64,000 bases of DNA from Pseudomonas sp. Lineage in GTDB: Bacteria; Pseudomonadota; Gammaproteobacteria; Pseudomonadales; Pseudomonadaceae. The position numbers and the translations under genes were made by a program. The stretch is from contig NZ_JBOFQE010000012.1 in the NCBI RefSeq assembly GCF_051660785.1, positions 347 to 64,346 of the forward strand, given 5' to 3'. Shown piece by piece: positions 28,385 through 38,215 of the stretch. The notes beneath the pieces were generated by a model, which searched no databases, was not told the DNA's origin, and was given only the letters and a program-made list of their open reading frames with translations. Within the stretch, counting starts at the first letter, position 1. Each line of letters begins with the position of its first letter.

Positions 28385-28473
28385 CTTTCTACAGATAAAA
28401 TTCCCCGCACTTCCCTCCCGCCGAATTGCCCGTCTACACTCGAACCATTCCCCCGAGCCATAACGAGACCGTT

Positions 28474-31400
28474 ATGCCCAGACTGCCGACCGTGCTTTTT
28501 TTGCTGTCGCTGATGACCTGGACCGCAACGGCTGGCGCGCTGACTCTGACCGACGAAGAACGTAGCTGGCTTGCGGCTCACCCGGACTTGCGCCTGGGTG
28601 TCGATGCATCCTGGCCACCGTTCGAATTTCGTGATGACCAGGGCCGTTATCAGGGCCTGGCGGCGGACTATATCAACGTGATTCGCCAACGACTGGCCGT
28701 CAAGCTGACGCCCATCGAACCGGTCAGCTGGACCGAAGTCCTGCAGCAGGCCAAACAAGGCAAACTAGACATCCTGCCGGGCATCATGTCGACCCCGGAG
28801 CGCCAGTCGTACCTGTCGTTCACTCGCCCCTATCTGGATTTTCCGATTGTCATCCTCGCCCATGTCGGAGGCCCTCAGCCGCACAAACTCGAAGAGCTCT
28901 ACGGACTGAAAATCGCCGTGGTGGAAAACTATGCCCCCCATGAGTTGTTGCGCACGCACCACCCCGACCTGAATCTGGTGGCAATGCCCAATGTCAGCTC
29001 TGCCTTGCAGGCACTGGCCACCGATGAAGTGGACGCGGTCGTGGGCGATCTTGCCTCCAGCGTCTGGAGCTTGCGTCAGCTTAAGCTCGACGGCCTGTAC
29101 GTCAGCGGTGAAACGCCCTATCGCTACCAATTGGCGATGGCTGTGCCCCCCAACAACAAGATCCTGGTCGGCATCCTGGACAAAGTCCTCGCTGACATGA
29201 CCTCAAGCGAAATCAACGCCATCCAGGAACAGTGGGTCGGCAATGTCCTGGATCATCGAACCTTTTGGTCGGATCTGCTGGTTTACGGCCTGCCCGGGCT
29301 GCTGTTTCTGATGATCATGCTGGCAGTGGTCATCCGGATTAACCGCCGTTTGAGTTCGGAAATTGCCCGGCGGGTCGATCTGGAGCAAGAACTACGCAGC
29401 AGCGAATACCATTACCGCGGGCTGGTAGAGAGCCTTTCCGCGATTGCCTGGGAAGCGCGGATCAGCGATTTCACTTACAGCTATGTGTCGCCACATGCCG
29501 AAGAACTCCTCGGCTATCCCCTGTCCCACTGGCTGATTCCGGGCTTCTGGCGCAACATCATCCACCCGGCGGACCTGACCCGGGCCCAGACATTCTGTGA
29601 TCACGAAGTGCTGGCCGGGCGCGATCACAGCATCGATTATCGGGTCATCACCGCCGACGGCCGCTGTTTGTGGGTGCGCGATATCGTCAGCCTGATCGAG
29701 CACGGTCATGAGCCGGTGATGCGCGGCTTGATGATCGACATCAGCGACGCCAAACGCACCGAGGAGGCCCTGAGCCTTTCCGAGCAAAAGTTCGCCTCCG
29801 TGTTCCAGCAATGCCCGGACATTCTGGTGATCGCACGTCTTTCCGACGGCTGCCTGCTCGAAGTCAACAAAGCGTTCGAAGAACAGATTGGCCTCAAGGC
29901 CGAAGACGTCATTGGCCAGACCGCCACCGACCTGAACATCTGGGGTATCCCCGGTGTGGGTCCGGGTTTGCTGCAGCGCCTGCAGGCCGGCAGCATCCGC
30001 AACCTGGAGATGCCCTTTCGCCGCAACAACGGTCAAGTGTTTACCGGGCTGATTTCCGCCGAGCCCTTCGACCTCGATACGACTCCTGCCCTGGTTGTCG
30101 TGGTACGCGATATCAGTCAGCTGAAAGAAACCCAGCAACAACTGCAAACCTCGGAAGAAAAATTCGCCAAGGCCTTCCACGCTTCCCCGGACGGTCTGCT
30201 GCTGTCCCGACAGAGCGACGGGCTGCTGCTGGAGGTCAATGAAGGCTTCAGCCGCATCACGGGCTTTAACAGCGCGATGTCCGTGGACCGTTCGGCCCTG
30301 GAACTGGGGATATGGGTCAATCTCAACGAACGCAAGCAGATGCTCGATTTGCTGCACCGGGACGGCTTTGTTCGTGACTTCAGCTGCCATATCCGCCGCA
30401 GTGACGGGCAGATCCGCCTCTGCGAGGTCTCAAGCCGTCCGCTGCCCATCGGTGATGAGGACTGCATGCTGACCATTGCCCGAGACATCACCGAACGGCA
30501 CCTGATGCAGGAGAAACTGCAACAGGCCGCCACGGTGTTCGAGAGCACCGCCGAGGGCGTGCTGATCACCGACACCCAACAACACATCAGCGCGGTCAAC
30601 CGGGCTTTCACCGAGATCACCGGCTACAGCGAGAACGAGGCATTGGGCCACACTCCTCGCCTGCTCGCCTCGGGCCTGCACGACAGTGCGTTCTACGCGG
30701 CGATGTGGCACCAATTGACGGACGAAGGGCACTGGCAAGGCGAGATTTCCAACCGGCGCAAGAATGGCGAACTCTATCCGAGCTGGCTGACCATCAGCGC
30801 CGTGCGTAACCGGGAGAAGTTCATCACCCACTTCGTCGCGGTGTTCGCGGACATTTCCAGCCTCAAGCACGCGCAGGCCAAACTCGACTATCAGGCGCAC
30901 CACGATCCGCTGACCGGCCTGCCAAACCGCACGCTGTTCGAGAGCCGTTTGCAGACCGCACTCAACACCCAACAGGAGAACGGCGGCCAGGGCGCGGTGC
31001 TGTTCCTCGACCTGGACCGCTTCAAACACATCAACGACAGCCTTGGCCACCCGGTGGGCGACCTGCTGCTCAAAGGCATCGCCGTGCGCCTCAAAGAGCA
31101 ACTGCGCGATATAGATACCGTCGCGCGCCTTGGCGGTGACGAATTCATCATCCTGCTGCCCGGCCTGCAACAATCCAGCGATGCCGACAACATTGCCACC
31201 AAGCTGCTCAATTGCTTCGCCGCCCCTTTCCAGGCCGGCGAGCACGAGTTTTTCATCAGCGCCAGCATCGGCACCAGCCTGTATCCCAAGGACGGTTGCG
31301 ACGTCGCCACGCTGGTCAAGAACGCCGATGCCGCGATGTATCGCTCCAAGGCCAAGGGCCGCAACCGGGTGGAAAGCTACACCCGCGACCTCACGGCCCA

Positions 31401-32220
31401 GGCCAGCGAGCGCGTGGCGCTGGAACATGAATTACGACGCGCCATCGAGCGCAATGAGCTATTTCTCTATTACCAACCGAAAATCAGCCTCGCCGACCAT
31501 CGACTGGTCGGTGCCGAAGCGCTCATTCGCTGGCATCACCCGACCTTCGGTGCAGTGCCGCCGGAACACTTCATTCCCCTGGCCGAAGAAAACGGCATGA
31601 TCCTGCAAATCGGCGACTGGGTGCTCGAGACAGCCTGCCGGCAGATGTACGAGTGGAATCAGGTCTATGAGTGCCTCGGCCCACTGTCGGTCAACCTCGC
31701 GGGCGCTCAACTGCGCCAGCCAAACCTGCTCGGGCGAATCGAACAACTGCTAAAGGATAACGGCCTGGCGCCCGGTTTTCTGCAACTGGAGATTACCGAA
31801 AACTTCATCATGAGCCAGGCCGAAGAAGCGCTGGCCGTGCTGCACCAACTCAAAAACCTGGGCGTGCAATTGGCGATCGACGACTTCGGTACGGGCTACT
31901 CATCCCTGAGCTACCTCAAGCGTCTGCCGCTGGACATCCTCAAGATCGACCAGTCCTTCGTCCGCGGCCTGCCTGACGATCCCCACGATGCGGCCATCGT
32001 TCGCGCCATCATCGCCTTGGGTCGCAGCATGCAATTCACCATCATTGCAGAGGGCGTCGAGACCGTGGCGCAGCAACAATTCCTTGCCGAAGAAGGCTGC
32101 GAACAGATCCAGGGCTACATCGTCAGCCTGCCTCTTCCCCCCGACGAATTCGCCGCGACGTTTCTTCGTATTGCCGTATCGGATTTTTCGGATAGCACAG
32201 CCGAGAAACCATCGTTATAA
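28474..32220 (+). CDS. SBP-TM-4xPAS-GGDEF-EAL c-di-GMP enzyme (RmcA/PA0575-like)
   Basis: Periplasmic SBP domain, four PAS domains, RDID I-site plus LGGDEF, EALIRW and DDFGTGYSSL; start trimmed to ATG 28474. Confidence 0.9.
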   Translation: MPRLPTVLFLLSLMTWTATAGALTLTDEERSWLAAHPDLRLGVDASWPPFEFRDDQGRYQGLAADYINVIRQRLAVKLTPIEPVSWTEVLQQAKQGKLDILPGIMSTPERQSYLSFTRPYLDFPIVILAHVGGPQPHKLEELYGLKIAVVENYAPHELLRTHHPDLNLVAMPNVSSALQALATDEVDAVVGDLASSVWSLRQLKLDGLYVSGETPYRYQLAMAVPPNNKILVGILDKVLADMTSSEINAIQEQWVGNVLDHRTFWSDLLVYGLPGLLFLMIMLAVVIRINRRLSSEIARRVDLEQELRSSEYHYRGLVESLSAIAWEARISDFTYSYVSPHAEELLGYPLSHWLIPGFWRNIIHPADLTRAQTFCDHEVLAGRDHSIDYRVITADGRCLWVRDIVSLIEHGHEPVMRGLMIDISDAKRTEEALSLSEQKFASVFQQCPDILVIARLSDGCLLEVNKAFEEQIGLKAEDVIGQTATDLNIWGIPGVGPGLLQRLQAGSIRNLEMPFRRNNGQVFTGLISAEPFDLDTTPALVVVVRDISQLKETQQQLQTSEEKFAKAFHASPDGLLLSRQSDGLLLEVNEGFSRITGFNSAMSVDRSALELGIWVNLNERKQMLDLLHRDGFVRDFSCHIRRSDGQIRLCEVSSRPLPIGDEDCMLTIARDITERHLMQEKLQQAATVFESTAEGVLITDTQQHISAVNRAFTEITGYSENEALGHTPRLLASGLHDSAFYAAMWHQLTDEGHWQGEISNRRKNGELYPSWLTISAVRNREKFITHFVAVFADISSLKHAQAKLDYQAHHDPLTGLPNRTLFESRLQTALNTQQENGGQGAVLFLDLDRFKHINDSLGHPVGDLLLKGIAVRLKEQLRDIDTVARLGGDEFIILLPGLQQSSDADNIATKLLNCFAAPFQAGEHEFFISASIGTSLYPKDGCDVATLVKNADAAMYRSKAKGRNRVESYTRDLTAQASERVALEHELRRAIERNELFLYYQPKISLADHRLVGAEALIRWHHPTFGAVPPEHFIPLAEENGMILQIGDWVLETACRQMYEWNQVYECLGPLSVNLAGAQLRQPNLLGRIEQLLKDNGLAPGFLQLEITENFIMSQAEEALAVLHQLKNLGVQLAIDDFGTGYSSLSYLKRLPLDILKIDQSFVRGLPDDPHDAAIVRAIIALGRSMQFTIIAEGVETVAQQQFLAEEGCEQIQGYIVSLPLPPDEFAATFLRIAVSDFSDSTAEKPSL

Positions 32221-32235: not shown

Positions 32236-32312
32236 GGGCCTATAGCTCAGTTGGTTAGAGCAGAGGACTCATAATCCTTTGGTCCACGGTTCAAATCCGT
32301 GTGGGCCCACCA
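32236..32312 (+). tRNA. tRNA with CAU anticodon, most likely tRNA-Ile2 (lysidine-modified)
   Basis: 77 nt. Acceptor stem GGGCCTA/TGGGCCC, anticodon loop CTCATAA, GGTTCAAATCC T-arm, encoded CCA. It lacks initiator hallmarks and sits near rpoD, like E. coli ileX. Confidence 0.93.
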
Positions 32313-32318
32313 AACAAG

Positions 32319-32347
32319 AAAGCCGCGCTGATGCGCGGCTTTCTTTT
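32319..32347 (+). terminator. tRNA terminator
   Basis: AAAGCCGCGC-TGAT-GCGCGGCTTT followed by CTTTT. Confidence 0.85.
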
Positions 32348-32377
32348 GATTTAACGAATCACGTAAATAGTGCTATC

Positions 32378-32503
32378 GAAGCGACTGACCGGATGAGATG
32401 GAGCGCTTCCCAGCGGCGAAAGCCGTAACCGCGCAAGGCGGTTCGCAAGTGGTGTCCGGATCTGCTTTAGCAAATCGAAGAAGACGCCTAGGGCGTCTTT
32501 TTT
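32378..32503 (+). ncRNA. Candidate structured small RNA of unknown family with its own terminator
   Basis: Stems GAAGCG/CGCTTC, CCGGAT/GTCCGG, GCGGC-GAAA-GCCGT and AACCGC-GCAAG-GCGGTT, then terminator AAGACGCC-TAG-GGCGTCTT-TTTT. Confidence 0.4.
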
Positions 32504-32530
32504 CGTTTCTGGCCTAGCAATACAGTCCTG

Positions 32531-32606
32531 CTCATCATCCTTTGGTCCACGATTCCTCGGTGTGTACCCATCAAACACGAAAGCCGCGCAAATGCGCGGC
32601 TTTTTT
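32531..32606 (+). repeat. Degenerate direct repeat of the tRNA 3' half plus terminator (att-like)
   Basis: CTCATCATCCTTTGGTCCACGATTC...CCATCAAACACGAAAGCCGCGCAAATGCGCGGCTTT versus tRNA CTCATAATCCTTTGGTCCACGGTTC...CCACCAAACAAGAAAGCCGCGCTGATGCGCGGCTTT; the similarity starts at the anticodon loop. Confidence 0.85.
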
Positions 32607-32632
32607 CTGAGACTAACGTTCGGGCTAAGAGA

Positions 32633-32818
32633 TCAGACCAGCCGAACCACCAAGGCAACAGCAACAAAGGTCACGAGCGCCAGTGCGGCACCGAGTCCAA
32701 ACGGCAGTAGGATTGCTCGGGTCGCGGTGGGGGACGGGCTACGCATGTCTTCGGCCAAGGCAGCCACGTCACGGTGTAACTGTTCAATGCTGGCTTGAAT
32801 CGTGGGAGGTGTGGACAT
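32633..32818 (-). CDS. 61-aa coiled-coil + C-terminal TM microprotein
   Basis: AGGAAG RBS 8 nt before ATG 32818; IEQLHRDVAALAEDM heptad followed by hydrophobic ILLPFGLGAALALVTFVAVALVV. Confidence 0.6.
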   Translation of the reverse strand: MSTPPTIQASIEQLHRDVAALAEDMRSPSPTATRAILLPFGLGAALALVTFVAVALVVRLV

Positions 32819-32943
32819 ACTGCGTCTTCCTGCAGGGATCACGGGTCACGCCTAATGCGCTAACCCTTGTTAGATAAGGTGGGCTGCTAAGCGGTAAAAC
32901 TCAAGCACCTCCGATCATTGGTCGCTTCCGTATGTTAGGGATT

Positions 32944-33138
32944 TTAAAGCTTGGACCACAGTCCGACGGCGGCGACAACGGCGGTCACGAGACCGGCGCC
33001 CACTGCAAACGGATACCAAAAAGCCTCCTGCCTGAGTTTGCTTTCTTCGGCCATAAACTTGCGGGTCTCGGCCATGAATTTCCGGATTTCGACTTGAAGC
33101 CTATCGAGCTCCAGATTATCGCGGTCATTTTGTAGCAT
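32944..33138 (-). CDS. 64-aa coiled-coil + C-terminal TM microprotein
   Basis: AGGAT RBS; heptad repeat RKFMAET-RKFMAEE followed by FWYPFAVGAGLVTAVVAAVGLW. Confidence 0.65.
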   Translation of the reverse strand: MLQNDRDNLELDRLQVEIRKFMAETRKFMAEESKLRQEAFWYPFAVGAGLVTAVVAAVGLWSKL

Positions 33139-33320
33139 CAGTCATCCTGTCGGGGCTCGGGTCGCGTCCAGTGCGCTACTCCGCGGCGGGAAATGCGTTT
33201 TTTCCTGTCTGCCGTCTAGGTTACATTTTGCGCTGACGGCAGATTATCGGATGACGTCTGCCAAGGTTGTAGGCAAACTCCGAGAATTGCGTAGCGGATG
33301 CGTTTGGGCACTTTTCCGCC

Positions 33321-33348
33321 TTGTTGGCGTTCTCTTCGACGGGATACT
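33321..33348 (+). promoter_or_regulatory. Putative sigma70 promoter for the C4/DUF3077 transcript
   Basis: TTGTTG-16 bp-GATACT upstream of the a1/b1 sites. Confidence 0.35.
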
Positions 33349-33458
33349 CTCCGGACGTCGCTGCAAATGTAGCGATCGGGTGTGGTAACCCGGCTAGACA
33401 AAGTGCAGCAGTGCTCCCATCACGGTTTCATGTGTTTTTACGCCTGTAATCCTGAGTT

Positions 33459-33540
33459 ATGGCGGCTGTGCGTGGGAGACCTTCGGGTCTGCCGGTTTCT
33501 TTGCTCTCCCGGTTTACCACCCTGCGTACAGCTGCCACCC
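33459..33540 (+). ncRNA. C4-type antisense RNA (P1 c4 / P4 CI family)
   Basis: Cloverleaf: outer stem GGCGGCTGTGCGTGGG / CCCTGCGTACAGCTGCC, hairpin AGACC-TTCG-GGTCT, hairpin GCCGG-loop-CCGGT. The single-stranded TTACCAC and TTTGCTC have complementary sites both upstream and downstream. Confidence 0.8.
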
Positions 33541-33578
33541 ATTCGTGTGGTAACGAATGCGGCAGCTCCTCGTTTTAA
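33459..33578 (+). CDS. Possible 39-aa ash-like upstream ORF overlapping the C4 RNA
   Basis: MAAVRGRPSGLPVSLLSRFTTLRTAATHSCGNECGSSSF*; its TAA is fused to the SD (TAAGGAG) of the next gene; weak RBS of its own. Confidence 0.3.
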   Translation: MAAVRGRPSGLPVSLLSRFTTLRTAATHSCGNECGSSSF

Positions 33579-33589
33579 GGAGCGAAACA

Positions 33590-33898
33590 ATGAGCAAAAC
33601 CAATTCCTCTGCACCGTCAGACCTGAAAACCATCGGTTTCACCCCACTCATCTACTGCTCGGATCAGGCGTTGTTCAACGTCCGCGCCGGCGTCCCCATC
33701 GTTGATGCATTGTCACAAGCCTCCGATCTGTTGTTCCTCGCAAAATCATTTGCCGAGGACGCAGCCTGCGCAAGAGACACCGACCGCCACGCCTGGGCCG
33801 CGCACTATCTGACGGCGATGGGTAAGGCGGTGATTGATGATGTGGTGAAGGTGCTGACACCGAGACCGCCTCGGACCGCAACGGAGTCTGAAGAATAG
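33590..33898 (+). CDS. DUF3077-like small protein
   Basis: AAGGAG RBS, ATG 33590. The sequence KTIGFTP..CSDQALFNVRAGVP..DAL..ASDLL..AK...AWAAHYL...KAVIDD matches the Pseudomonas DUF3077 pattern from memory. Confidence 0.7.
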   Translation: MSKTNSSAPSDLKTIGFTPLIYCSDQALFNVRAGVPIVDALSQASDLLFLAKSFAEDAACARDTDRHAWAAHYLTAMGKAVIDDVVKVLTPRPPRTATESEE

Positions 33899-33973
33899 CG
33901 ACGAACTATCCCCAAGTAGGCGCCTCGATTTTCTGGAGTCTTTAAATCACGACTGGGATAGCAGCTAGAAAGC

Positions 33974-34007
33974 AAAAAGCCCCGATGCTTTCGTATCAGG
34001 GCTTTTT
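33974..34007. terminator. Bidirectional terminator between convergent DUF3077 and DUF2188 genes
   Basis: AAAAAGCCCCGAT-GCTTTCGT-ATCAGGGCTTTTT. Confidence 0.75.
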
Positions 34008-34087
34008 GTAAATCTGAGTGTTGGCATTTCTATAAAAGCAAAACACAACACCGCCCGCCGCTCTCTCTCACTTGGCGGTCTGTCGAA

Positions 34088-34324
34088 TTAGTGTTTTTTG
34101 TCTTTCGGTGACGACGGATCATTGCCATAGCTATCGCTATCTCGAATTGTTCCGTCCTTTTTGTGAATAACGACTTCAACATGATCGCGCTTTGCTTGTT
34201 CCCGGGCACGATCGATCGCTTGCTGTTGGGTGTCGGTAACAACTCCTGCGCGCCCCGCTCCCTCCTTCTTTGTAGCCCAACCGTCCGGATGCGGAACAAC
34301 ATGAATATCTTTCTTGTCGCCCAT
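34088..34324 (-). CDS. DUF2188-family small protein
   Basis: IHVVPHPDGWATKKEGAGRA...TQQQAIDRAREQAK...VVIHKKDGTIRDSDSYGNDP is the family-typical pattern; GGAG RBS. Confidence 0.85.
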   Translation of the reverse strand: MGDKKDIHVVPHPDGWATKKEGAGRAGVVTDTQQQAIDRAREQAKRDHVEVVIHKKDGTIRDSDSYGNDPSSPKDKKH

Positions 34325-34433
34325 GTAAATTTTGCTCCATAAAGGTTTTCAGATACGTAGCGATGATGTCGCAGATGAAATGTAGTCAAGATCTCGGAAA
34401 CCGTTTTCTCGCTACCTCTCAACTACTCACTGT

Positions 34434-35111
34434 CTACGAATGATGATCGCCATGATGGGAATTGCCAGCCCAAACACTCACCGCCGGAATAGCCTGCACC
34501 AACCCCATCCGCTCAAGCACTTCCCTCGTCAACACGCCCTCATACGTATCCGTCGCCCTGCCCCATTGCTCGACGATACCCAGGCCATCTACCAACGCCT
34601 CACCCAAGCCGCTAATCGTATCGGCCAATGCCTCCACGATGGTTTGAGTGCGTAACCACAGGCGATCCGTAATCTCTTTCAGCTCTGCCGCTATACGGGC
34701 AGACGAAGCCGGATCCGTCTCCGGGTAGGTGATGTTGCGCAGTAAGTGCCGTAATTCCCTTATTTTTGCGTAGTCCTGTTCCGCCCCAAGCTCACCCCTC
34801 AGAATGGCGGTCGCCTTCGGCTTATCGACGCGACTCCCGGACGAATGCTTTAAAGCCAATGCCTGCGCCATAGCGCCAGCAAAGAGGACCATCATCCGGG
34901 CTTCCAGATGCTCCTTCATTGCCTCAATGGAGGAAATCGAACGCGCCAAGGTAATGGAGGCGCCGGCTTGATGCCTCAAGTCCATGGTGATGGTCAGGCT
35001 CACGCCACCCGTTTCAAATCCCAGGGCCCGGGCAACGACGTAGTGGCCCATTTCGTGATTGGCAATCTGCACGGCGTGATCCCGGACAGCGGGAGGCATC
35101 TTCTTCGTCAT
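34434..35111 (-). CDS. Stand-alone peptidase M41 (FtsH protease domain)-like zinc metalloprotease
   Basis: ANHEMGHYVVA (HExxH), LEARMMVLFAGAMAQ resembling FtsH LESQISTLYGGRLAE, and GAEQD resembling FtsH GASND (third ligand). No AAA+ or TM domain. GAGGTG RBS 6 nt before ATG 35111. Confidence 0.75.
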   Translation of the reverse strand: MTKKMPPAVRDHAVQIANHEMGHYVVARALGFETGGVSLTITMDLRHQAGASITLARSISSIEAMKEHLEARMMVLFAGAMAQALALKHSSGSRVDKPKATAILRGELGAEQDYAKIRELRHLLRNITYPETDPASSARIAAELKEITDRLWLRTQTIVEALADTISGLGEALVDGLGIVEQWGRATDTYEGVLTREVLERMGLVQAIPAVSVWAGNSHHGDHHS

Positions 35112-35145
35112 TTTGGTCACCTCGCATCCCTCGATTTCTCATTCG

Positions 35146-35174
35146 ACTATGACTGACAGTGGGTGTCCATCCAA
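35146..35174 (-). promoter_or_regulatory. Putative sigma70 promoter for the M41 gene
   Basis: Minus strand TTGGAT-17 bp-CATAGT; the -35 lies inside the third tRNA-derived repeat. Confidence 0.45.
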
Positions 35175-35206
35175 TAGAAAAAGCCGCGCAATGGCGCGGC
35201 TTTTTC
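35158..35206 (+). repeat. Third, heavily decayed copy of the tRNA 3' end plus terminator (right islet boundary; also a bidirectional terminator)
   Basis: GTGGGTGTCCATCCAATAGAAAAAGCCGCGC-AATG-GCGCGGCTTTTT; the GCCGCGC/GCGCGGC stem is identical to that of the tRNA terminator. Confidence 0.65.
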
Positions 35207-35224
35207 GTACCTGCGATTCAGTCT

Positions 35225-37588
35225 TTACTTGGGTAAGGCGTACGCAATTACATAGTCCCCCCGATCCGGCGACTGACGTGCGCCACCTACCGTCAGCAGG
35301 ATGTACTGCTTACCGGTTTTCGGCGAAACGTAAGTCATCGGGCCGGACTGACTACCCACAGGCAAGCGCGCCTTCCAGATCTCGTTGCCATTGCCGGTAT
35401 CGAAAGCGCGCAGGTAAAAATCCTGAGTGCCCGCGAAGAACAACAGGCCCGACTGAGTCGCCAGCGAAGCGCCGAGGGTCGGCATGCCGATCGGAATCGG
35501 CAGGTGCATGCGGATGCCCAGCGGACCGGTGTCTTGCACCGTGCCGACCGGGACTTGCCACATCAGTTTGTGGGTCTTGAGATCGATGGCCGACATCGTG
35601 CCGAACGGCGGTTTCTGGCACGGAATGCCTGCTGCCGAGAGGAAACGTTCGCGCATCGCACCGAACGGTGTGCCTTCCTGCGGCACCACGCCCATTTCAA
35701 TACCGCTGGCCCCGGCGGCGATCTTGTCGCGCGGGATCATGTAGTTGGCCAGGCCCAGGCGCATGTCGTTGACGAACATGTAATTCGTGTTCGGGTCCAC
35801 CGATACGCTGCCCCAGTTCATGCCGCCCAGCGAGCCCGGAAATTGCAACGCACGATCAAGGCCTGGCGGGGTGTAGACGCCTTCGTGGCGCATGCCTTTG
35901 AACTGGATGCGGCACATCAACTGGTCGAACGGCGTGGCGCCCCACATGTCGGATTCGGTCAGGGTTTTATTGCCGATTGACGGCATGTCCACCGAGAACG
36001 GCTGGGTCGGCGAGTAGCGCTCACCAGGCACGTTGCCTTGCGGCACCTTACGTTCTTCGACGCGGGCGATCGGCACGCCGGTCTCGCGGTTGAGCAGGAA
36101 GATCTCGCCCTGTTTGGTGACTTGCGCCAGGGCTGGCTGCATTCCGCCCTTGTCGTCCGGCACGTCGTACAGCAACGGTTGCGCCGGCAGGTCGAAATCC
36201 CACAGGTCGTGGTGAGTGGTCTGGAAGTGCCAGCGCACCTGACCGGTCTTCACGTCGATGGCGACGATGGACGAGTTCCACTTGTCGTCGAACTCGGTGC
36301 GCTGACCGCCGAAGAAGTCCGGCGTGGCGTTGCCGGTGGGCAGGTACACCAGACCGAGTCTGGCGTCGTAGGACATGGCCGACCAGACGTTCGGCGTGCC
36401 ACGGGAGTACGTCTCGCCAGCGGGCGGGCGTTTGGTGGTGTTCGGGTTGCCCGGATCCCACGCCCAGACCAATTCGCCGCTGCGCACGTCGTAGGCGCGG
36501 ACCACGCCTGGCGGTTCGCCAGTGGAGTAGTTATCGGCCACACGGCCACCGACGATCACCACATCACCGGCGACCAGCGGCGTCGAGGTCTGCTGGTAGT
36601 AACCCGGTTTCACTTCGCCCATGTCGGTGGTCAGATCGACCGTGCCCTGGTTGCCAAACTCTTCACATGGCTTGCCGGTGTCGGCATTGATCGCGATCAG
36701 ACGCGCATCGCCGGTCGGCAGAAACAGACGTTTCGTACAGGCAGTCGGCTGATTGTCCGAAGACGCGGGGGTTTCGGAATAGCCCAGGCCACGGCAACGC
36801 TGCCAGTTCGGCGCGGTGCCTTGCGGGTCGAACTTCCAGCGTTGGGCGCCGGTGTCAGCGTCCAGGGCGAAGACTTTCCCGTAGGCGGTGCAGGTGTAGA
36901 CCGTGTCGCCGATCTGCAGCGGCGTATTCTGGTCTTCGGCGCCGGCGCCCGTGCTTTGCGGGATGTCGCCGGTGCGGAAGGTCCAGGCCACCTGCAACTT
37001 GTCGATGTTGCCTTTGTTAATCTGGTCCAGCGCGGCAAAGCGGTTGCCAGCGGTGGTATTGCCCCAGTGGGCCCAGTCTTTCTGCTCGGAGCCCGGTTTG
37101 ACCGGCGTTACGGCCGGCTCAGTCGTGGCTTCGACAACGTGGGTCGGCACGAACATGTAGGCCATGGTTGCAACAACGCTAACGCCCAAGATGCCGGCCA
37201 AGCCATAAGCCCCACGGCCCGCCGTCGCGCCCGAAGCACGCGCCAGCGCTGGATAAATCAGCGCGATCACCAGGCCGATCACGGCAAAGGTCAACACTCG
37301 CGAAACCAGCGGCCAGTATTCAAAACCGCTGTCCCACACAGCCCAGATCGCCGTCAGGATCAACGCCACGCCATACAACCACGCGCCTTGCGGTTTACGA
37401 CGGGCAATCATCAGCCCGGACACCAACATCGCCAGGCCCATCAGCAGGAAGTACCAGCTCCCGCCAAGCGCCACCAGATAACCACCGCCACCGGCCAGAC
37501 CAAGCCCGATCAAGGCAATCAGGACACCCAGCCCCACCAGTAACCATTTGCCGCCGGTGGCAGCCCCAGAATTATTCATGTCGATCAT
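35225..37588 (-). CDS. Membrane-bound PQQ-dependent dehydrogenase, glucose/quinate/shikimate family (QuiA-like)
   Basis: Five N-terminal TM helices, beta-propeller W motifs, WQRCRGLGY, HHDLWDFDLPAQP and GSLGGMNWGS; probable start ATG 37588. Confidence 0.9.
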   Translation of the reverse strand: MIDMNNSGAATGGKWLLVGLGVLIALIGLGLAGGGGYLVALGGSWYFLLMGLAMLVSGLMIARRKPQGAWLYGVALILTAIWAVWDSGFEYWPLVSRVLTFAVIGLVIALIYPALARASGATAGRGAYGLAGILGVSVVATMAYMFVPTHVVEATTEPAVTPVKPGSEQKDWAHWGNTTAGNRFAALDQINKGNIDKLQVAWTFRTGDIPQSTGAGAEDQNTPLQIGDTVYTCTAYGKVFALDADTGAQRWKFDPQGTAPNWQRCRGLGYSETPASSDNQPTACTKRLFLPTGDARLIAINADTGKPCEEFGNQGTVDLTTDMGEVKPGYYQQTSTPLVAGDVVIVGGRVADNYSTGEPPGVVRAYDVRSGELVWAWDPGNPNTTKRPPAGETYSRGTPNVWSAMSYDARLGLVYLPTGNATPDFFGGQRTEFDDKWNSSIVAIDVKTGQVRWHFQTTHHDLWDFDLPAQPLLYDVPDDKGGMQPALAQVTKQGEIFLLNRETGVPIARVEERKVPQGNVPGERYSPTQPFSVDMPSIGNKTLTESDMWGATPFDQLMCRIQFKGMRHEGVYTPPGLDRALQFPGSLGGMNWGSVSVDPNTNYMFVNDMRLGLANYMIPRDKIAAGASGIEMGVVPQEGTPFGAMRERFLSAAGIPCQKPPFGTMSAIDLKTHKLMWQVPVGTVQDTGPLGIRMHLPIPIGMPTLGASLATQSGLLFFAGTQDFYLRAFDTGNGNEIWKARLPVGSQSGPMTYVSPKTGKQYILLTVGGARQSPDRGDYVIAYALPK

Positions 37589-37753
37589 TTTCCCCGTTTC
37601 TGACAAGCGCGGAATGATGTACTACCTAGTTACTTATGGCAATTTGTCGCAGATGAAAATGTCCCGAACGGTACTGATGCCAGATCACACATCCGCTGTG
37701 CGAGCCGTGCTGTAACATGCCGACTCACTGATTTGTGTTGCCGGAGACGCCCC

Positions 37754-38215
37754 TTGCCTGACACCCGCCCGCCTGTTCTTGACGAAATCGACCGCCAATT
37801 GATCGCGGCGTTGCAGATCAACGCCCGCGAAAGCGTGGCCATGCTTGCTCGCCAATTAGGCATCGCACGGACCACGGTGACTTCACGTCTGGCGCGGCTG
37901 GAGAAGGCCAAAGTCATCACCGGTTACGGTGTGCGTCTGGGTCAACGGGTGGTGGACGGTGGATTGCAGGCGTATGTCGGGATCACGGTGCAACCGCGCT
38001 CGGGCAAGGAAGTGCTGCGTCGGCTCAGCGCCATGGCCCAGGTGCAGCAGTTATGTGCGGTGAGTGGCGAATTTGATTATGTGGCGTGGTTGCGCACGGA
38101 CTCGCCGGAGCAGCTGGATCAGTTGCTGGATCAGATTGGCAGTGTGGATGGGGTGGAGAAGACCACGACTTCGATCATCTTGAGTAGCAAGATAGATCGG
38201 GGGCAGCCGGTTTGA
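37754..38215 (+). CDS. Lrp/AsnC-family transcriptional regulator
   Basis: LDEIDRQLIAALQINARES HTH and AVSGEFDY RAM domain; GGAGA RBS with TTG start at 37754. Confidence 0.9.
   Translation: MPDTRPPVLDEIDRQLIAALQINARESVAMLARQLGIARTTVTSRLARLEKAKVITGYGVRLGQRVVDGGLQAYVGITVQPRSGKEVLRRLSAMAQVQQLCAVSGEFDYVAWLRTDSPEQLDQLLDQIGSVDGVEKTTTSIILSSKIDRGQPV

Follow-up and report, generated by a model that had tools for sequence, protein, structure and literature searches.

Probable island relics layered at a tRNA(CAU) hotspot in Pseudomonas, the newest a 263-bp insertion with an orphan structured RNA

How does a tRNA gene come to be followed by damaged copies of its own 3′ half and terminator, with no recombinase gene among them? 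The question is raised by a gene for a tRNA with the anticodon CAU in a 64,000-nt stretch of a Pseudomonas sp. genome (NCBI RefSeq assembly GCF_051660785.1, contig NZ_JBOFQE010000012.1, positions 347 to 64,346), which is called the window here and to which all coordinates refer. A first-pass annotation of the window had described three copies of a unit made of the tRNA 3′ portion and a terminator, delimiting cargo cassettes, and had read them as the scars of successive integrations. The observation of a repeat array proved largely right and was partly confirmed, and the interpretation is partly supported. The array probably consists of decayed island relics layered at a tRNA hotspot, the newest of them a 263-bp insertion that replaced the 3′ half of the tRNA gene. 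Such relics would be similar to a cis-mobilizable element (CIME), an element that keeps its att sites and has lost its integration genes (PMC5704250). The locus was compared with the rest of its own 6.87-Mb assembly, labelled G000, and with other genomes of the genus, designated by G-numbers. Genes for tRNAs were called with ARAGORN, RNA families with Rfam covariance models and protein domains with Pfam and PHROGs.

Two of the copies are real direct repeats. Unit 1 (32268-32359, + strand) holds the 3′ half of the functional tRNA gene and its terminator, a hairpin at 32316-32345 with the loop TGAT, and corresponds to an attL-like end, whereas the attR-like unit 2 (32531-32620, + strand) is a decaying copy with the loop AAAT. 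A repeat finder aligned 32268-32292 with 32531-32555 at 92% identity over 25 nt and 32296-32349 with 32557-32610 at 83% over 54 nt, and returned a 33-nt family at 32310, 32571 and 35171 with identities of 100%, 88% and 76%. When the whole assembly was searched with the tRNA and its terminator, unit 2 was the second-best match (E 6.6e-17, 83% over query positions 33-114) and outranked every other tRNA. A profile of the full unit, built from 43 native units of relatives, matched unit 1 at E 2.9e-24, unit 2 at E 1.2e-14 and 35159-35214, the region of the putative third unit, at E 2.9e-5 in a genome-wide search. A second profile, of the post-tRNA part alone, placed the three units at 1.4e-10, 2e-10 and 3.4e-8, with the next match elsewhere at 8.3e-7. 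The stem GCCGCGC-N3-7-GCGCGGC occurs at seven places in the genome, and the only copies with an A-tract before and a T-tract after are those of units 1, 2 and 3, all within 3 kb. The annotated pair of a native unit at 32268-32347 and a second copy is thereby borne out; the repeats end at about 32359 and 32620, slightly beyond the ends given earlier. The left boundary of unit 2 is, as had been claimed, the first base of the anticodon loop (CTCAT). Unit 2 is damaged by a 2-nt deletion in the T-loop region and several substitutions, and a base is changed in the presumed core in the anticodon loop (CTCATCA).

Comparison with the closest relatives demonstrates which of the two repeats is the older resident. 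The stretch between them, 183 bp of cargo (32348-32530, + strand), is present together with the same unit 1 and unit 2 in G006, where the cargo is 95% identical. In G083 and G301, the tRNA is followed by a single unit and then by a pair of small open reading frames (ORFs). Identity to this genome over the left flank is similar in all three relatives (G006, 93%; G083, 94%; G301, 92%). In a four-way alignment, G083 and G301 are without exactly 263 columns, which amount to the 183-bp cargo and one repeat. The single unit of G083 and G301 has the loop AAAT and a unit-2-type tail, whereas unit 1 of G000 and G006 has the loop TGAT, A in place of G at a T-loop position and a tail of another type. Unit 2 therefore represents the host's former 3′ half with its terminator, and the present 3′ half of the tRNA gene arrived with the insert. 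An imported 3′ half is what attP x attB recombination would be expected to leave if the crossover lay near the anticodon loop. Given that the 2-nt deletion in unit 2 is common to G000 and G006, the insertion predates the split of these two genomes. In G309, the unit-1 allele is followed by a different cargo of 1.4 kb and then by a partial unit 2. The earlier description of a cassette of about 180 bp bracketed by repeats is thus matched by gain or loss exactly at the repeats, and the proposal that the newest insertion lies nearest to the tRNA also holds.

The tRNA gene itself (32236-32312, + strand; Rfam tRNA score of 73 bits) is the only one in the window and is labelled Met by ARAGORN. The assembly contains six CAU tRNAs, namely one of the elongator-Met type, four of initiator types and the window copy, and no UAU tRNA was found in it. 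By elimination among the six, the window gene probably encodes tRNA-Ile2, the lysidine-carrying, AUA-reading tRNA. A single-copy Ile2 gene of this kind would explain why an inserting element needs to restore a functional 3′ half.

The same site is used elsewhere in the genus. To the left of the tRNA, a gene for a PAS-GGDEF-EAL signalling protein (28426-32220, + strand; Pfam) is syntenic, together with the tRNA, in 23 of the 24 relatives in which synteny was first sampled. On the right, synteny restarts at about 37740, with a gene for an Lrp/AsnC-family regulator (37733-38215, + strand; Pfam), in the 16 relatives whose compared stretch reaches that far and in further loci. Between the tRNA terminator unit and the sequence that aligns with lrp, there are only about 70-125 bp in G117, G126 and G058, so that all of the 5.4 kb found here is accessory. 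The gap is about 1-2 kb in several species and 8 to more than 16 kb in others. The G+C content is 0.48-0.57 within the interval and 0.60-0.66 in the flanks, and the lower value fits acquired DNA.

The tRNA 3′ half and terminator are present a second time in six of the first 20 genus genomes surveyed, at distances of 0.26, 1.9, 4.5, 5.6, 14 and about 26 kb. The second copy starts at the same CTCAT in G006, G001, G004 and G017, and in the last three of these it is displaced by 4.5-14 kb; that of G008, 1.9 kb downstream, has its start deeper in the gene, in the variable-loop region. In G017, G020 and G021, a gene for a tyrosine recombinase of about 380-410 residues (PF00589) lies a few tens of bases past the terminator. 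In G001 and G008, the integrase is truncated to its first 100-150 codons, and G245 retains a 2-kb relic that shares the right arm. The block of identity begins at the anticodon loop, spans the terminator and ends with a conserved tail of about 15 nt, beyond which the genomes diverge. The 3′ half of tRNA(CAU) is thus a much-used attachment site for tyrosine-integrase islands in the genus, which bears out the suggestion that the tRNA received successive events. The start of unit 2, previously assigned to a tyrosine integrase by its position, is the same nucleotide as in the integrase-bearing islands of other species. Other cargo was also read at this tRNA: a gene for a SocA/Panacea-domain antitoxin with an ORF of unknown function in G309 (L059:2322-3329), a block of three ORFs of unknown function in G331 (L046:2335-4610) and a gene for an XRE-type helix-turn-helix protein in G278 (L045:6950-7180).

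These comparisons bear on the simplest alternative, namely that the tRNA end was copied by local tandem duplication or replication slippage, or that the terminators are alike by chance, without any mobile element. In its favor, the repeats are direct and lie near each other, and G+C-rich terminator hairpins do recur in the genus. However, units 1 and 2 differ exactly where unit 2 agrees with relatives that have no insert, which is unexpected for a local duplication and already largely refutes it for these two units. In addition, the repeat boundary is that of integrase-bearing islands, the E-values exclude chance for unit 2, and the cargo is a conserved RNA gene that is found elsewhere in at least 18 of 400 other genus genomes. 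An origin without a mobile element is therefore scarcely credible.

Integration by a tyrosine recombinase, the preferred explanation, raises the matter of the enzyme. No recombinase was detected in the tRNA-to-lrp interval. PF00589 has 12 matches in the genome and none on this contig, and a tblastn search with the integrases of the relatives' islands found nothing at the locus, in agreement with the first-pass annotation. Among the 12 tyrosine recombinases, none is orthologous to the island integrases; the best match in the genome has 28-31% identity, over the catalytic domain only. The search for a cognate integrase elsewhere in the genome thus gave a negative answer, and the enzyme behind the 263-bp insertion is no longer present. 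In the absence of a cognate integrase in the genome, the relics are read as immobile, in the sense of a CIME, and they are presumably immobile now.

That an integrase made the 263-bp insertion is likewise a deduction, and several points weigh against it. There is neither an integrase nor an integrase fragment beside the 183-bp cargo, and the sequence just to the left of unit 2 is unlike the matching arm of the integrase-bearing islands. Also, the TGAT loop that marks the imported unit is a native allele in distant species and occurs on the terminator of an unrelated gene in three genomes. Given this recurrence, identity of the hairpin alone is weak evidence of common descent, a caution that applies to unit 3 as well. 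Tracing the donor of unit 1 by its loop was abandoned for the same reason, with no donor identified, and no larger progenitor that carries the 183-bp cargo was found.

The cargo itself is the most unusual item of the locus. No credible ORF is present in the 183 bp, and all that can be recognised there is a gene for a structured RNA (32375-32505, + strand), which measures about 130 nt and ends in its own terminator. The structure is supported by covariation in an alignment of 16 copies (A1), in which 37 base pairs are formed in 97% of cells, as compared to about 40-48% in slid controls. Compensatory change is seen in 19 cells, as compared to 5.9 +/- 2.7 in shuffled alignments, and none of 500 shuffles reaches 19. 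The RNA has GNRA-capped hairpins. It matches no Rfam family at E<=1 apart from a chance-level match to isrK, and thus represents a structured RNA family that is uncatalogued in Rfam. Hammerhead-like motifs noticed by eye were dropped, since no ribozyme model matched.

Relatives of the RNA with 80-95% identity are those counted above in at least 18 of the 400 genomes. Copies of the family include L043:2110-2239, L049:6109-6239 and, on the minus strand, L047:6004-6133. Most copies lie away from tRNAs, which suggests that the RNA module itself is independent of the tRNA site. Elsewhere, the RNA is usually convergent with an ORF of 181-184 amino acids of unknown function. The protein has no match in the local Pfam and PHROGs libraries, and its relatives are annotated as hypothetical in Pseudomonas species; the ORF also bears the precomputed label PF27200. 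In the window's own genome, the RNA occurs once and the partner ORF nowhere, which makes the RNA an orphan. The RNA and the partner ORF are both found beside the same tRNA in G351 and G278; after the pair, G351 also has a 32-nt repeat of CCA and the terminator. In G331, too, the RNA adjoins this tRNA; the neighbours differ among the three genomes, and the distribution is patchy among close relatives. It is conceivable, if unlikely, that the 183-bp insert belongs to a family of integrase-less micro-elements, composed of the RNA and the 181-184-residue protein, that hitch-hike on tRNA-targeting integrases. The pair would then be a candidate RNA-protein module, of a toxin-antitoxin or defence-like kind, of which only the RNA is left here.

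The first-pass annotation had also suggested that the cassettes might be mobilised in trans, as small passenger elements that are still excised and moved by an integrase provided, for example, by an incoming island at the same tRNA. In favor of such traffic, the repeats on either side of the cargo, about 80-90 bp each, share their left boundary with integrase-made repeats, and the RNA gene is found beside the tRNA in changing company. However, the deletion and substitutions in unit 2 and the altered base in its presumed core do not support present mobility, nor does the genome hold a cognate integrase, and across the genus the RNA gene mostly occurs away from tRNAs and without such repeats. 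Active passenger elements are accordingly quite improbable.

Unit 3 (35159-35214, with no strand assigned) is a different matter from units 1 and 2. It consists of a hairpin with the loop AATGG and a 15-nt tail, recognised by the profiles and by 76% identity over 33 nt, and it acts as the terminator of a convergent gene for a gcd-like, pyrroloquinoline quinone (PQQ)-dependent dehydrogenase (35225-37606, - strand; PF01011, E 1e-235). The claim that the unit occurs three times therefore stands for units 1 and 2 and for the hairpin and tail of unit 3. It is not supported for the heavily decayed tRNA portion assigned to unit 3, given that the 54 nt upstream of the hairpin align locally to the tRNA 3′ half with a score of 10, as compared to a null of 11.3 +/- 2.0. 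The hairpin and tail lie directly past the gcd stop codon in at least 15 of the loci that were read.

The distribution of gcd in the genus is informative. A homologue of at least 79% identity is present in about 50 of the 400 genomes, and in the roughly 25 loci of this kind that were read it lies between this tRNA and lrp. For about half of all the matches, the alignment extends into the unit-3 hairpin. The remaining genomes have a gcd of 74% identity at another locus. In short, gcd occupies two alternative chromosomal positions in the genus. The gene and unit 3 (35173-37688) are missing from the locus in G006, G083 and G309, and no gcd homologue turned up in these three closest relatives. The copy in the window is the only gcd-like PQQ dehydrogenase of its genome and lies inside the variable zone.

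Whether unit 3 is, in addition to its role at gcd, an old copy of the tRNA terminator, left by an integration event between the tRNA and gcd, is roughly an even call on the sequence comparisons. In an extended form of this idea, the oldest integration left unit 3 as its attR scar, the whole stretch between units 2 and 3 arrived as a single island, and the tRNA and gcd had once been convergent neighbours with one common terminator. Several observations fit. Unit 3 is the best match to the unit profiles in the genome outside units 1 and 2 and lies 2.6 kb away, and the three units are the only A/T-flanked copies of the stem. The 15 nt past its hairpin agree with the attachment site at its conserved right end. 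Gene order in relatives is also suggestive: in G080, the unit-3 hairpin of gcd is 67 bp from the tRNA's own terminator, and in G152, G177 and G367 a peptidase-like gene is the sole gene between the tRNA unit and unit 3, which is followed by gcd. On the other hand, no significant tRNA-like sequence lies upstream of unit 3. A profile of unit-3 tails did not match the native tRNA tails, although this profile lacked power, and the likeness is suggestive by eye. The hairpin could also have arisen independently, since the exact unit-1 hairpin, with its TGAT loop, terminates an unrelated gene in G353, G205 and G204 (L085, L086 and L087, respectively). A repetitive extragenic palindromic (REP)-like palindrome replaces the hairpin after gcd in some relatives, such as G003, and in genomes with an empty site the tRNA faces lrp rather than gcd. 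Finally, the content between the units varies by module rather than as a block. The extended form, with unit 3 as the oldest scar and the whole stretch as one island, is thus possible and somewhat doubtful.

This last point also concerns the cassette of about 2.55 kb that had been described between units 2 and 3. The interval exists, but rather than a single cassette it holds a mosaic of modules, gained and lost independently, and its indels mostly do not coincide with repeats. Adjacent to unit 2 are the two small ORFs, of 69 and 64 amino acids (32633-33138, - strand; the ORFs span 32633-32842 and 32944-33138), which occur in the closest clade only. They are paralogous and have similar leaders, and the 64-residue product matches phrog_6330, of unknown function, at 1.4e-9. 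The pair is present in G006, G083 and G301; G309 and G245 have lost part of it, and G128 and G225 lack it. Past it, a T-run and tail at 33194-33260 (+ strand), placed by position and eye, may be a fourth remnant of which the tail alone is left. It resembles the sequence directly after the native tRNA terminator in genomes where a C4 RNA module follows the tRNA, with the C4 promoter motif providing the register, and this likeness suggests that the small ORFs, too, may have been inserted next to the tRNA terminator. A profile search for homology of this tail gave no match and lacked power. A fourth hairpin at about 33160-33190 was not listed, because this stretch bears a likeness to the other small ORF's leader as well.

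The next module is of phage type. A c4-a1b1 target element (33344-33396, + strand; RF03163, 47.7 bits with a gathering threshold of 46.7) and a C4 antisense RNA (33455-33542, + strand; RF01695, 81.4 bits with a threshold of 45) lie upstream of a DUF3077 gene (33557-33898, + strand; PF11275, E 1.5e-31), and both RNA scores are above the gathering thresholds. In phage P1, the genes downstream of C4 are icd and ant. The module in the window shares with the immI module of P1 and P7 a C4 RNA with a1/b1 targets upstream of a protein gene, and differs from it in the DUF3077 gene, in the lack of a surrounding prophage and in not being bounded by tRNA repeats. C4 RNAs of this immI type are covered by a motif survey (PMC2864571). 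The complete set of C4 RNA, a1/b1 targets and DUF3077 gene (33344-33898) thus stands outside any prophage, and the module is kept next to the tRNA in many species. A promoter-like motif, TGTAGGCAAACT, is conserved about 70 nt past the tRNA terminator in genomes without an intervening insert.

An indel with a DUF2188 gene (indel 33913-34461, no strand assigned; gene 34088-34324, - strand; PF09954) follows. It is missing from G006, G083 and G309, is found only in this genome among those read and has the lowest G+C content of the locus (0.475-0.49); no repeats were found at its ends. The last gene before unit 3 encodes a 228-residue protein with a weak likeness to M41/M50 zinc peptidases (34434-35120, - strand; Pfam matches below the curated cut-offs). 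This gene is kept at the locus in many relatives, and the exact protein, as a handle for strain-level comparison, retrieved nothing on record. The order in G128 and G181 is tRNA unit, C4-DUF3077, peptidase-like gene, unit 3 and gcd; G225 has the same gene order with no unit-3 hairpin detected. Of the indels in the mosaic, only the left edge of the gcd indel coincides with a repeat. Comparison of the tRNA-to-lrp interval across relatives thus places the breakpoints of the first cassette at the repeats and most others away from them, and presence or absence with breakpoints at repeats applies to the 183-bp cargo and not to the DUF2188, C4/DUF3077 and gcd indels.

A probable course of events can be given on this basis. 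The attachment site would be the 3′ half of tRNA(CAU), from the anticodon loop through the terminator and about 15 nt further, and the gap behind it would have expanded from about 70-125 bp to 5.4 kb as insertions were layered and deletions followed. The older layers would be the small-ORF pair, the C4 RNA/DUF3077 phage-type module, DUF2188, the peptidase-like gene and gcd, none of which is bounded by tRNA halves. Unit 3 serves gcd and may or may not be an old copy of the tRNA terminator. The newest event would have brought in 263 bp, made up of the 183-bp cargo and a repeat of about 80-90 bp. The incoming DNA would have supplied the functional tRNA 3′ half and terminator as unit 1, and the host's own 3′ half and terminator, pushed downstream as unit 2, would have been released from selection and begun to decay. 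The cargo is confined to the RNA gene, and the ORF that usually accompanies it is missing.

Islands and prophage remnants of tyrosine recombinases commonly integrate into the 3′ ends of tRNA genes and are flanked by direct repeats of the tRNA 3′ segment. The locus shares with them the tRNA 3′ target, a repeat that starts at the anticodon loop and is found at the far end of the insertion as units 1 and 2, a gene rebuilt from element-borne sequence, presence/absence polymorphism, lower G+C content, cargo of phage-like, toxin-antitoxin-like or defence-like character, and related islands in other species with an integrase beside the tRNA. It differs in that no integrase or transfer gene is left inside the element, that the youngest island has merely 183 bp of cargo, and that the repeat is unusually long, reaching through the terminator to about 15-45 nt beyond. 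CIMEs and tandem accretion were first described for elements related to ICESt1 of Streptococcus thermophilus, and the CIMEs described are far larger than the relic with 183 bp of cargo. In the three-step accretion model, integration and decay to a CIME are followed by renewed integration and accretion (PMC5704250). A CIME in this sense arises when an ICE or IME decays, and it can be mobilised in cis once it has accreted with a functional element. The tandem array at one target gene is as such a sequence would leave it, with both repeats present, unit 2 partly degraded, and no recombinase. The host, integrase family and target differ, and the likeness, which rests on the repeats and the missing recombinase, is putative. 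The array is not an integron cassette array, which would have an IntI integrase with attI and cassettes between attC sites, given that its repeats are pieces of tRNA and terminator rather than attC sites and that there is no integrase at the locus.

The locus is therefore an instance of an already known process, the tRNA-linked island hotspot, and reveals no new mechanism. It provides a clean, datable example of how such a hotspot is built up and eroded, in which host-derived and element-derived repeats can be told apart. Here, a single-copy and probably essential tRNA gene functions with an imported 3′ half, and both att repeats have been retained in an island reduced to 183 bp. The site seems to collect small modules of toxin-antitoxin-like or defence-like character, and the gap between tRNA(CAU) and lrp is a variable region of the genus that gathers such modules along with RNA modules.

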